Positions 27,086-30,390 of a stretch of DNA of 55,842 nucleotides are shown here, piece by piece. The notes below the pieces were generated by a model, which was not told the origin of the DNA, did no database searches, and saw only the letters and a list, made by a program, of their open reading frames with translations. Position 1 is the first letter of the stretch, and every line of letters begins with the position of its first letter. Origin of the DNA: a virus (lineage: Duplodnaviria > Heunggongvirae > Uroviricota > Caudoviricetes); the IMG/VR virus record IMGVR_UViG_2923350032_000003; one strand, given 5' to 3'. The position numbers and the translations under genes were made by a program.

Positions 27086-27295
27086 TTAGTCCTGATTTTT
27101 ATCCACCCTGAGTAGTTCGCGCAGAGCAAAGGCATCCCCTTTTCTGGCAAGCTTAAACAATGCCGCTCGTAACTCGGCTTCACCTTTCGCTCTGCCCTTA
27201 CGGATGGCCGCATAAAAATCTGTCATTGCTTCCCGATTTTCTTTCAGTCGGTTCAGATCAACATCCAGAACGTCAGCGATTTGTTGTGCAGTCAT
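27086..27295 (-). CDS. Small putative DNA-binding protein
   Basis: About 69 aa from MTAQQIADVLDV...; HTH-like; start chosen to avoid overlap with upstream gene. Confidence 0.3.
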   Translation of the reverse strand: MTAQQIADVLDVDLNRLKENREAMTDFYAAIRKGRAKGEAELRAALFKLARKGDAFALRELLRVDKNQD

Positions 27296-28205
27296 CCGGC
27301 ACGCTGCCAGAGACTCGACTTTCGAATACGGAATCATTTGTCACCCCCATTGATATGCAGGGTGTCTTCTTCCTGTATTTTTCGTGAAGGATTTTTACTG
27401 CAGCGTTGTTCCAGGTGACCTGATGGTGAATGCGTTTATGGCTGGCACCCATCAGTGAGATTTTTACGCACGACGGCGAATACATGACGGAGTAAAAACT
27501 TTTAACGTAGGTTCCGGAATCCAGATACAGCTCGGTCATTCCGCCGCTGTTTTTCTGCGTCTGTTTCTGCCCTAACTGGACAGCACCGATCGTCATAAAC
27601 AATTCACCACAGCGACCGAGATTCGTGTACGTATTCACATCCTCGTTAATGCGCCCCATGAATGAGAACGGTCGATCAACCGAACAGATAAAGCTGTTCA
27701 TTGCCTTGCGTTTCACCCACGAAGCATGGCCGCCATTGTCACCAAGAAAATCCCCGCCCTGCGACATAGCGATGGAAAGCGCGGGTATTGATTCGTAATA
27801 CGCCAGCATTTCAGAAAGGATCGCATCCAGTTTCCTTATCGGGAAATAGGCCTGGTCATAGTTGCGATCCACCCGAAACTGGAACTCGTGATAATCATCA
27901 TCGAGCTGAATGAAGTATTTACACCCGACCAGTTTTGCCAGGTCGAAACAGGCATTACGGGCGTAAAAAATTGAGCGGCGATCACCAAAATTATCGGCTT
28001 CGTCAAAACGACTGGCAATATCGGCTTTGGAAAATACCAGCACCTGTTCACCAAATTCAGCCATGTACTGATGCCGTGTCTTATCTTCATCATCAACAAC
28101 GATAAAAATTTTCCCGGTATAGCCAGCACGACGCAACGTCCGGTAAGTCAGAACTTTGTCCGGTCGCCCGTGAGTCAGAATAAAGGCGCAAAAATCATCA
28201 CGCAT
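27273..28205 (-). CDS. Hypothetical protein with GT-A-like glycosyltransferase features (DxD-type motif QLDDDY)
   Basis: 310 aa from MRDDFCAFILTHGRPDKV...; start overlaps the stop of the ParB-like gene (ATGCGTGATGA). Confidence 0.35.
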   Translation of the reverse strand: MRDDFCAFILTHGRPDKVLTYRTLRRAGYTGKIFIVVDDEDKTRHQYMAEFGEQVLVFSKADIASRFDEADNFGDRRSIFYARNACFDLAKLVGCKYFIQLDDDYHEFQFRVDRNYDQAYFPIRKLDAILSEMLAYYESIPALSIAMSQGGDFLGDNGGHASWVKRKAMNSFICSVDRPFSFMGRINEDVNTYTNLGRCGELFMTIGAVQLGQKQTQKNSGGMTELYLDSGTYVKSFYSVMYSPSCVKISLMGASHKRIHHQVTWNNAAVKILHEKYRKKTPCISMGVTNDSVFESRVSGSVPDDCTTNR

Positions 28206-28516
28206 ATTCCTCCTCCTCCTCCCCGCCATGCATGATCTCCACCATGCGCTGCGTCATTCGGACAAATCCATTTTCAATAGCCTGCTGATAATCAATGATC
28301 ACCAGCGCCGACTCCTCGAAAAGGCACTGAATTTCAGCGGGGGCATGAGCGTAATAGTCCGCAATTCTGCTGAAATTAAACACTGTGTGACGTTCTGCCG
28401 CACACAGGAGGAATTTCTCAATATCAGGATCAAGGGACGCCGAACGTATCCGGCTGATCAGCTCCTGAGTTTTCGTATCGTCGTACAGTTCACTGATATC
28501 CGGTTTACTGTAGTGG

Positions 28517-29263
28517 TCAAGTAATATTGGCCACGGTTTTACAGTAAAAATGGTATCTGTTCTCTGACTCTTCCGGCGTCAGCCCACCGTTATAATGGTG
28601 AGGTCTGACGCTGTTGTAGTAGTTCAATATGTAATCATTAATTTGCTGCCGGGCCTCGTCCTTGCCTGCGTAACCATTCGTTGGCACCCATTCTGTTTTC
28701 AGACTGCGGAAGAAGCGTTCCATGGGGCTGTTATCCCAGCAGTTTCCCCGCCGACTGACGCTTTGATTTATTCTGCAACGCCAGAGAAGTTGTTGATATT
28801 TAAGGCCTGTATACTGGCTTCCCTGGTCGCTATGGAACACGACATCCCGGGGTTGGCCACGCGTCTCATAGGCCATCCGCAGGGCACTGCTTATCAGTGC
28901 GGTATCGGCATGCGCTGACAGACTCCAGCCGATAACCCTGCGGGCAAAAAGATCCATAACAACCGCCAGATAGCACCAGCGATTTCCTGCCCAGAGATAC
29001 GTAATATCTCCACACCATACCCGGTCTGGCTCCGGTACTGCGAACTGACGCTCAAGCAGATTCGGCAGGCTGGTATGCTCCTGACGGGCATTTTTATACT
29101 GATGTTTTCCGGGCTGACAACTGCTCAGGTTCAGATATTTCATCAGACGTCCGGCACGGTAACGGCTCATCGGGACGCCGTTTTGAGTCAGCATTTCAGC
29201 CAGAGTGCGCGCGCCCGCAGAGCCCCGACTTTGGTTCCACGCCCGGCGTATTTCGCTGCACAA
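28517..29263 (-). CDS. IS3-family transposase OrfB (DDE); likely made as OrfAB by -1 frameshift at 29428-29434
   Basis: 248 aa with integrase core motifs; the orfB frame is open upstream to the A AAA AAG heptamer within orfA. Confidence 0.75.
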
Positions 29264-29382
29264 CCTGACTCGTGCCGGATTAACCGTATCGCGTCGTTTT
29301 CGCCAGTACCGGTAACTGCTGCGGTGTATTTCCAGAGCAGAACACAGGCTGACAACCGTGTGGCTGTCACTTAGTCTGGCGG

Positions 29383-29730
29383 CTATCGTGAACCGTTCAG
29401 CGAGTCGGACATTAAGAGCGCGGTAGCCTTTTTTAATATCGTATTTTGTTCCTCCAGACGGCGAACTTGCTTTTCCAGCTCGCGGATACGTTGCTGGTCT
29501 GGAGTAATGGGTGTGGCAGAGGGCGTAATACCCTGGCGCTCTCGCCTGAGCTGGCGTACCCAGCTCTCAAGCGTGGTTGAACCGACATTCATCGCTTCAC
29601 TGGCCTGTCGATATGAGTAGCCCTTATCAACAATCAGCTGTGCACATTCCAGCCTGAACTCAGGGGTGAAGGTTCGTTTGGTTTTCTTGTTCATTAAGTC
29701 ACCTGTTTTGTGTTGTGGTGAGAATATCAC
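29383..29730 (-). CDS. IS3-family transposase OrfA
   Basis: 115 aa; HTH and leucine zipper; ...[18 protein letters not shown] end typical of IS911-like OrfA. Confidence 0.8.
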
Positions 29731-30390
29731 CTTTCATCAGGTGGCCAAATTTAGTGTGCCACTACATACCGCCCGACGGCTCATAAACAGGCGTATCAAT
29801 TTTCGTCGTATACGGCTCCTCCTCATTTCCTGTACCGGGCAAAACATCCGTCAACAGTTCATCAATTTCTGTCGGGATGAAGCCTGTCAGGGAGACATCA
29901 AAATCAGCATTGATTAGGTCCGACAGCTCCATCCGCAACAGATCTTCATCCCAGCCAGCATTCATCGGCAGGCGATTATCTGCCAGGCGGTACGCCTTTT
30001 TCTGCTCATCCGTCAGGCCAGACAGAACAATGACCGGAACAGAATCCATTTTGAGCATTTCAGCCGCCATAACACGACCGTGACCCGCAATAATTTCGCC
30101 CTTTTCGTCAATCAGCACCGGATTAGTCCAGCCGAATTGCTTAATACTTTCTACCAGTTGTGCCACCTGCTCAGTACTGTGCGTCCTGGCGTTGTGCGCA
30201 TACGGTGACAATTCTTGTAATGGGCGATAGACTATCTTTAATTTCTCGCTCATACAGCCTTGCTTTATGAATAAAACGCACCCCAGCAGCCAGTGCTACT
30301 GGGGGCGGAGGTGTTGCTGGTAAAGTTAGGTATTGGATCAATGAGTGAGTCAACATAATATTAAACTCACAATTATAAATCAGCCATATA

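Follow-up and report, generated by a model that had tools for sequence, protein, structure and literature searches.

The window analysed here (the whole 55,842-nt stretch of IMG/VR virus record IMGVR_UViG_2923350032_000003) is, taken as a whole, a full-length Rac-like lambdoid prophage of E. coli, extending from pin to int. Just ahead of its terminase genes it carries two overlapping genes, one for a ParB-like protein and one for a 310-amino acid glycosyltransferase of the TAGT family. Comparison of this pair across viral and bacterial genomes indicates that one large lineage of “solitary” TAGTs is not solitary: its members are coupled to a dedicated, unannotated C-terminal domain (CTD), which in most cases is the end part of a ParB-like protein. 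In viruses of many bacterial phyla the pair stands at the head of the packaging operon, and in a haloarchaeal virus it is close by. The favored reading, given a probability of roughly one half, is that the TAGT, assisted by the ParB-like protein, places a sugar on replicated phage DNA around the time of packaging. Either there is an unrecognized DNA modification in very common temperate phages, the Rac-like E. coli phages included, or a DNA-glycosyltransferase family has been turned to some other substrate.

The TAGT family, its fold, and an association of ParB proteins with DNA modification were known beforehand; a general link between ParB and phage DNA-modification clusters has already been proposed (Iyer et al., 2013, as cited in PMC8256090 and PMC13229309). 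“Solitary” TAGTs, found in 288 of 753 phages, were left unexplained in a 2026 survey (PMC13216743), and a survey of ParB-fold proteins makes no mention of glycosyltransferases (PMC12704722). No paper describing the ParB-CTD/TAGT pair, the CTD or a product was found in the literature searched.

An earlier note on this DNA had described the 310-amino acid protein as GT-A-like, and its QLDDDY motif as reminiscent of a DxD site, and profile and structure comparisons bear out both. The protein matches Pfam PF20691 (TAGT, TET-associated glycosyltransferase) with 121.6 bits, the cut-off being 27.5 (E 5.5e-35; residues 8-222, corresponding to positions 4-205 of 205 in the profile) and PHROG 842, named “beta-glucosyl-HMC-alpha-glucosyltransferase,” over its whole length (E 1.4e-103), and its AlphaFold model has a predicted GT-A fold. 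The families returned are thus nucleotide-sugar families, rather than ones unrelated to that chemistry, and their characterized members act on DNA. The DxD motif is conserved: in an alignment of 43 homologues, which takes in Lactobacillus, Nocardia and Haloarcula virus proteins, residues D102, D103, D104 and Y105 of the motif (residues 100-105) are invariant, and the C-terminal ~60 residues are also conserved. Invariance of the catalytic DDD and of many polar residues across phyla argues for enzymatic activity. The family comprises at least 8000 clusters (90% identity) at E <= 1e-5. A longer, 318-amino acid reading of the open reading frame (ORF), from an ATG at 28229, is equally open. PGAP names the protein “GREB1-related protein,” because it belongs to the same superfamily as the GREB1 C-terminal domain. 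Another relative, the JGT of kinetoplastids, glucosylates 5-hydroxymethyluracil (5hmU) in DNA and depends on JBP1/2 to make that base. JGT and the GREB1 C-terminal domain share a superfamily with TAGT as defined by Iyer et al. (2013); both are eukaryotic, and their sequence identity to the TAGT described here is very low. JGT-like folds have been reported for phage GT-A DNA glycosyltransferases (Pyle et al., bioRxiv 10.1101/2023.12.21.572611).

In its uninterrupted form the upstream gene encodes a protein of 264 amino acids. Its residues 1-135 are confidently predicted to form a ParB/Srx nucleotide-binding domain with two short helices; the protein scores 30.2 bits against PF02195 (ParB_N; cut-off 26.3) and E 3.8e-73 against PHROG 620, and the solved structures to which Foldseek places the model closest are the CTP-binding B. 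subtilis ParB-CDP (6sdk), Noc, M. xanthus ParB, KorB and PadC (E 2e-6 to 1e-5). Residues ~3-141 also match the N-terminus of ParB-DNA-methyltransferase fusions (PHROG 498, E 2.3e-51; PADLOC MTase_II, 2.1e-38). At the arginine-box position the protein reads A-G-H-G-R-x-x-A-A rather than the canonical GERRxRA, with a single arginine, and histidine in place of the catalytic glutamate; the box residues G57, G59, R60, A63 and A64 are invariant, and H58 nearly so. The “nuclease” in the label first given to this gene is a legacy family name, and nothing here points to nuclease activity. The helices are followed by a predicted disordered linker with a conserved YTxKIxxPxYEP motif, and then by the CTD, which is helical, about 100-115 amino acids long, and has many invariant polar residues (conserved sequence ...FLxxAAERHTVFNF.KIADYY...Q.LFEESALVIID..AIE.GF). 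In profile searches against all PDB sequences the CTD gave chance-level matches only (best E 0.006, to a coiled-coil adhesin), and against Pfam only sub-threshold matches to PF23887, in 7 of 35 members.

Two other identities for the system were considered and rejected. A chromosome or plasmid partition ParB (ParABS) does not fit: no helix-turn-helix DNA-binding domain was found in the predicted structure and no parA in the prophage (PGAP annotation, Pfam searches of window ORFs), and the TIGR00180 score of 39.4 is below the cut-off of 58.45. For a known defense system, PADLOC returned nothing for the TAGT, and for the ParB-like protein only the ParB-like N-terminus of its methyltransferase model.

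The two genes are translationally coupled. The stop codon of the ParB-like gene (TGA, 28200-28198) overlaps the ATG of the TAGT gene (28205-28203) inside ATGCGTGA, the overlap being 8 nt, and immediately 5′ of that ATG the GAG and GAA codons for the acidic end of ParB (GAGGAGGAGGAGGAA) make up a Shine-Dalgarno-like stretch rich in GGAGG. Of 75 related loci, 72 show such an overlap of stop and start, most often by 8 or 11 nt.

The gene pair, whose conservation the earlier note had put forward as a check, recurs in many phages and prophages. In E. coli, 888 of 5426 complete genomes (about one in six) have it. Among cultured phages, the TAGT subfamily is found in Rac-like phages of E. coli and Salmonella, Lactobacillus phages (phi jlb1, c5, phiLdb and others), Nocardia phage NTR1, Porphyromonas phages, the haloarchaeal virus HHTV-2 (Haloarcula) and Vibrio jumbo phages; in every annotated case except the last, a ParB gene lies directly upstream. 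In a collection with one genome per species, 64 of 70 loci have a ParB-family ORF as the next gene upstream, in the same orientation, and the six exceptions comprise two contigs that end at the TAGT, two TAGT fragments, one TAGT broken near its start, and L138. These loci span Enterobacteria, Bacteroidales, Clostridia, Veillonella, Acidobacteriota, Planctomycetes, Spirochaetes, Saccharibacteria and one archaeal metagenome-assembled genome. In L138, a Hyphomonadaceae metagenome-assembled genome, a 564-amino acid fusion of a TAGT with a class I methyltransferase (3581-5272) lies between the ParB gene and a regular TAGT.

Is the ParB domain or the CTD the constant partner? In the Vibrio jumbo phages, in several genome loci and in about 17 of 80 viral loci, the ORF directly upstream of the TAGT is a stand-alone CTD (129-192 amino acids) that lacks a ParB domain. 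When viral loci were picked by the CTD alone, a TAGT was on the same strand in all 80 and directly downstream in 72, with other enzyme genes between CTD and TAGT in most of the remaining eight; the partner gene was a TAGT at every locus examined. In tblastn searches of 50,697 phage records the CTD was found in the same phages as the TAGT subfamily. One locus (L141) has two tandem CTD+TAGT pairs, and one protein (P0287) is a natural TAGT-CTD fusion. The CTD is at or near the protein C-terminus in its best 150 matches, and its profile, a narrower enterobacterial one in this search, matches at least 1260 clusters (50% identity) in a search of 1.84 billion representatives. The CTD, not the ParB nucleotide-binding domain, thus appears to be the dedicated partner of this TAGT lineage, and from these comparisons the ParB domain is concluded to be a frequent but dispensable addition to it. 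Physical interaction between CTD and TAGT is suggested by the fusion, the coupling and the co-occurrence.

TerS, TerL and portal genes are downstream of the pair in most loci seen: phi jlb1, NTR1 and a Porphyromonas phage have their terminase genes right after it, and in HHTV-2 the large terminase gene is nine small ORFs downstream. In the window, too, the terminase genes come soon after the pair, as the earlier note had said, with a single 83-amino acid ORF between. In the Vibrio jumbo phages the CTD-TAGT pair is situated among primase, exonuclease and helicase genes, not structural genes. A separate case is L114 (5114-6196; Bacteroidaceae), in which the gene right after the TAGT encodes a homologue of the DNA polymerase III beta subunit (sliding clamp), not a terminase subunit.

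Variant loci carry accessory genes beside the pair, among them an NAD-dependent epimerase, a sugar-phosphate nucleotidyltransferase, and extra TAGT paralogues, which fit a supply of nucleotide-activated donors and further sugar decoration. Six viral contigs have further enzyme genes in the space between CTD and TAGT genes (L176, 3107-5474; L221, 2845-5282; L180, 957-1901; L229, 4369-5316; L225, 2942-3892; L231, 4302-5294); they encode a CofD-like transferase (with a HAD-like part) together with a MobA-like nucleotidyltransferase, a radical SAM enzyme, or a histidine-phosphatase/cytidylyltransferase fusion, and suggest more elaborate products in those phages. An environmental phage with the pair (L158, 17837-20316; L159, 8659-11138) has three to four consecutive GT2 genes right after the capsid gene.

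The constancy, in most loci seen, of a place directly before TerS and TerL speaks for a role in packaging itself. The pair could be a packaging accessory or relic without DNA modification, involved in pac-site recognition, terminase assembly, or as a structural or regulatory cofactor; a proposal that ParB acts at packaging (Iyer et al., 2013, as cited in PMC8256090) points the same way. This is nevertheless very unlikely, given the DDD and many polar residues invariant across phyla, the nucleotide-sugar biosynthesis genes and extra TAGT paralogues in variant loci, and the presence of the pair in a jumbo-phage replication module. A variant in which the TAGT modifies a cell-surface glycan in lysogenic conversion is held equally improbable, the late operon not being a typical position for conversion genes.

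Possible roles for the ParB domain are suggested by two described systems. ParB176 activates the phage thymine dioxygenase 5mYOX176 on double-stranded DNA, and ParB genes of this kind frequently have terminase and glycosyltransferase genes in their vicinity (O'Toole et al., 2026, PMC13229309). By its published description, ParB176 consists of a nucleotide-binding domain, helices, a disordered linker of ~50 amino acids and a CTD, and lacks a DNA-binding domain, which is also the layout predicted here (PMC13229309), and by analogy the ParB-like gene, like that of ParB176, adjoins a putative post-replicative DNA-modifying enzyme. The systems differ in that the partner here is a glycosyltransferase, with no dioxygenase found, and in that the present CTD also occurs without a ParB domain. 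ParB-methyltransferase fusions (PHROG 498, MTase_II), which are enriched in prophage regions (Kaljevic et al., PMC12704722), share the N-terminal part; here linker and CTD replace the methyltransferase domain, and the catalytic protein, the TAGT, is a separate, translationally coupled polypeptide.

On this basis, a possible sequence of events is as follows. The CTD would bind the TAGT and activate or position it; the ParB domain would bring the pair onto double-stranded phage DNA, as ParB176 may do for its T-dioxygenase, a DNA-engaging role proposed because of the analogy with ParB-dependent dioxygenases and ParB-methyltransferase fusions; the TAGT, presumably dependent on a metal and a nucleoside diphosphate sugar through its DxD site, would add a sugar to phage DNA after replication and near the time of packaging; and the sugar might protect or mark the packaged genome.

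Several observations weigh against sugar modification of phage DNA by this pair. Canonical DNA bases offer no hydroxyl acceptor, the terminal hydroxyls being the only ones that canonical DNA has. A TET/JBP dioxygenase, thymidylate-synthase-like hydroxymethylase or C5-methyltransferase was not found in the whole prophage (PGAP annotation; Pfam searches of the remaining window ORFs). None of these enzymes was found either in the annotated regions around the pair in four phages (small phages of 31-65 kb, with HHTV-2 among the annotated set), in Pfam-labelled environmental contexts, in 40 non-redundant flank families (positions -3, -2 and +1; Pfam), or among the 25 most frequent of 85 families (Pfam, 140 neighbor-cluster representatives). 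TET/JBP was absent from the sampled flanks, with no TET/JBP profile run over every ORF of every locus, so that rare co-occurrence is possible. The literature searched held no nucleoside data for any phage with the pair, and model confidence is low for both the C-terminal ~60 residues of the TAGT and the CTD. GREB1, which has a TAGT-like domain, is reportedly a protein O-GlcNAc transferase, so that a protein acceptor is possible for the TAGT as well. Finally, mutations of ParB nucleotide-binding residues did not abolish activation in the system of O'Toole et al. (PMC13229309), which leaves the role of the ParB domain unclear even where it has been characterized. As to the earlier note's suggestion of a DNA-modification enzyme, membership in a family with DNA-acting members stands; no acceptor-base pathway being present, the role itself stays putative.

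What, then, might the acceptor be? Characterized TAGT-type enzymes need a hydroxyl, which comes from a TET/JBP-type dioxygenase or else from a hydroxymethylase that acts on nucleotides, followed by a first glucosyltransferase (PMC13216743, PMC8256090, bioRxiv 10.1101/2023.12.21.572611). The TAGT enzyme of phages T2 and T6 (beta-glucosyl-HMC-alpha-glucosyltransferase), which adds a second glucose to glucosyl-5-hydroxymethylcytosine (glucosyl-hmC; PMC13216743, PMC13390438), resembles the 310-amino acid protein in Pfam family, PHROG, GT-A fold, DxD motif and phage encoding. The T-even enzyme, however, extends the alpha-glucosyl-hmC made by dCMP hydroxymethylase and alpha-glucosyltransferase (PMC13216743), and none of those genes was found in this prophage; here, moreover, the TAGT is obligatorily paired with a ParB-CTD protein. 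T-even phages were not reached by tblastn with this TAGT, the similarity being too low, nor with the CTD.

It is a rather unlikely alternative that the pair carries out classical glycosylation of 5hmU or 5-hydroxymethylcytosine (or glucosyl-hmC), with a precursor from a divergent oxidase, or on foreign DNA such as that of T-even phages, in defense or interference. The TAGT family is named for its association with TET/JBP, PHROG 842 bears the name of the T-even enzyme, thousands of contigs with 5mYOX-like genes lack a TET/JBP annotation (O'Toole et al., PMC13229309), and prophage glycosyltransferases have been speculated to hypermodify invading genomes (Pyle et al., bioRxiv 10.1101/2023.12.21.572611). 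Against these points, the small annotated phages (31-65 kb) and the whole Rac-like prophage yielded no candidate enzyme, and the same pair is present in virulent jumbo phages and an archaeal virus. The lack of a PADLOC match is a further objection, as is the position of the gene in a late packaging operon behind a terminator rather than in one expressed in lysogens. In the first 50 kb of Vibrio jumbo phage pv27, a thymidylate synthase gene adjoins one for dihydrofolate reductase, which suggests an ordinary thymidylate synthase.

A bolder version of DNA modification would dispense with the hydroxymethyl-pyrimidine precursor altogether: the pair might glycosylate an exocyclic amine of a canonical base, or the terminal 3′-OH at terminase-made ends, with the CTD as an obligatory specificity or activation subunit. 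This is considered improbable; if true, DNA would be glycosylated in a new way, and the system that does so would be carried by roughly every sixth complete E. coli genome as well as by bacterial and archaeal tailed viruses.

Alternatively, the TAGT may glycosylate a phage or host protein, for example the Tyr/Thr-rich YTxKIxxPxYEP linker motif of its own partner, in the manner of glycogenin, or else terminase, portal or virion proteins. The invariant tyrosines in the disordered linker directly before the CTD would be candidate sites, and the failure to find an acceptor-base pathway in the prophage or the sampled flanks, what is said of GREB1 as an O-GlcNAc transferase, and one environmental phage with four GT2 genes beside its capsid gene can all be read in its favor. 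It is an unlikely explanation all the same: ParB domains like this one are found fused to DNA methyltransferases, the Vibrio jumbo CTD-TAGT pair is among replication-type genes (primase, exonuclease, helicase), and the two best-characterized microbial TAGT relatives act on DNA.

In the window itself, the ParB-like gene is interrupted. The earlier note had reconstructed it across an insertion sequence (IS), with an end in EEEEEYA and a stop overlapping the start of the 310-amino acid protein, and the sequence confirms this. The IS is annotated by PGAP as “IS3 family transposase,” with programmed frameshift. Elements of the IS3 family are ~1.2-1.5 kb long, with two overlapping transposase ORFs and with inverted repeats at their ends that begin with TG; this one agrees in its length, its pair of transposase ORFs, its imperfect end repeats (TGTAGTGG...TTGGCCAC) and its 3-bp target duplication. 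Removal of the IS and of one TAC copy gives the uninterrupted allele of PCP06022 (~70 junction bases compared), with junction ...VYEPSGG|KPDISELYDD... and end GGEEEEEYA. The cut is between the linker motif and the CTD: the 5′ fragment, which encodes the ParB/Srx nucleotide-binding domain, the helical segment and the linker with its YTxKIxxPxYEP motif, runs into the IS and stops at 29762, and after the IS there is no usable start codon for the whole CTD, the sole ORF left being a 61-amino acid, GTG-started remnant. Since ParB domain and CTD are parted and a complete CTD has no start, the module is probably inactive in this strain, the TAGT ORF itself being intact.

The same insertion is present in 12 of the 5426 complete E. 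coli genomes, the window's strain included. K-12 derivatives lack the module, because of the ParB gene (ynaK) their Rac remnant has retained no more than the first ~254 bp, which adjoin ydaY. The 12 genomes would be natural ParB-disrupted controls, K-12 is a background without the module, and both possibilities, an unrecognized DNA modification or another substrate, are testable in E. coli. The intact 264-amino acid ORF (L001, 7113-7907) is entered by PGAP in several genomes as a pseudogene, a truncated ynaK (7650-7907, “missing C-terminus”), probably since the K-12 remnant serves as the reference for ynaK; the CTD-coding half is as a result unannotated in those records.

Table 1. Features of the ParB-CTD/TAGT region in the window (positions in the 55,842-nt stretch).
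Feature	Position	Strand	Description and evidence
Portal gene	23297-24703	-	Pfam/PHROG profile searches
TerL (terminase large subunit)	24706-26016	-	Pfam; same orientation as TAGT, downstream
TerS (terminase small subunit)	25988-27082	-	Pfam Terminase_2, Terminase_6N and Terminase_6C assignments across 24706-27082
Small ORF between TAGT and TerS	27086-27337	-	83 amino acids (69 in PGAP, “hypothetical protein”)
TAGT-family GT-A glycosyltransferase gene	27273-28205	-	310 amino acids, MRDDFCAF...; DxD at D102-D104; WP_001204033.1
Translational-coupling junction	28198-28224	-	Acidic-tail codons and stop/start overlap
ParB-like gene, 3′ fragment	28198-28508	-	Most of CTD; ends ...GGEEEEEYA*; PHROG 620 positions 136-217
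Target-site duplication TAC	left 28506-28508, right 29767-29769	.	Relative to uninterrupted allele in L001
IS3-family insertion sequence	28509-29766	-	1258 bp; orfA 29383-29730, orfB 28517-29263
ParB-like gene, 5′ fragment (ynaK homologue)	29767-30253	-	Pfam ParB_N, PHROG, PADLOC, model/Foldseek
Intrinsic-terminator-like hairpin	30281-30304	-	Terminator scan: 10-pair stem, then T run

Every gene in this part of the prophage is encoded by the minus strand (Table 1). The 83-amino acid ORF, which overlaps the end of the TAGT ORF, matches PHROG 309 (small terminase) with E 8.3e-23, only at mid-profile positions 145-218 of 319, and may be a split-off DNA-recognition part of TerS. At the other end of the module, a strong terminator-like hairpin (30304-30281), 3′ of the trkG moron, precedes the start of the ParB-like gene by ~30 nt; with such a hairpin in place, expression of the module would need antiterminated late transcription. 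The trkG potassium-transporter moron itself is within 30281-31866, between the lysis cassette and the ParB-like gene, as in the K-12 Rac prophage.

Elsewhere in the prophage, just upstream of the holin gene, are two adjacent small ORFs (33411-34385; 131 and 142 amino acids) annotated as TolA C-terminal-domain proteins. Between the Q-like/Nin-like and the replication genes, 37600-45000 is taken up by non-phage cargo, namely genes for a DUF1971 protein, an MFS transporter, a gamma-glutamylcyclotransferase, a LysR regulator, a DUF2254 protein and a BCCT transporter.

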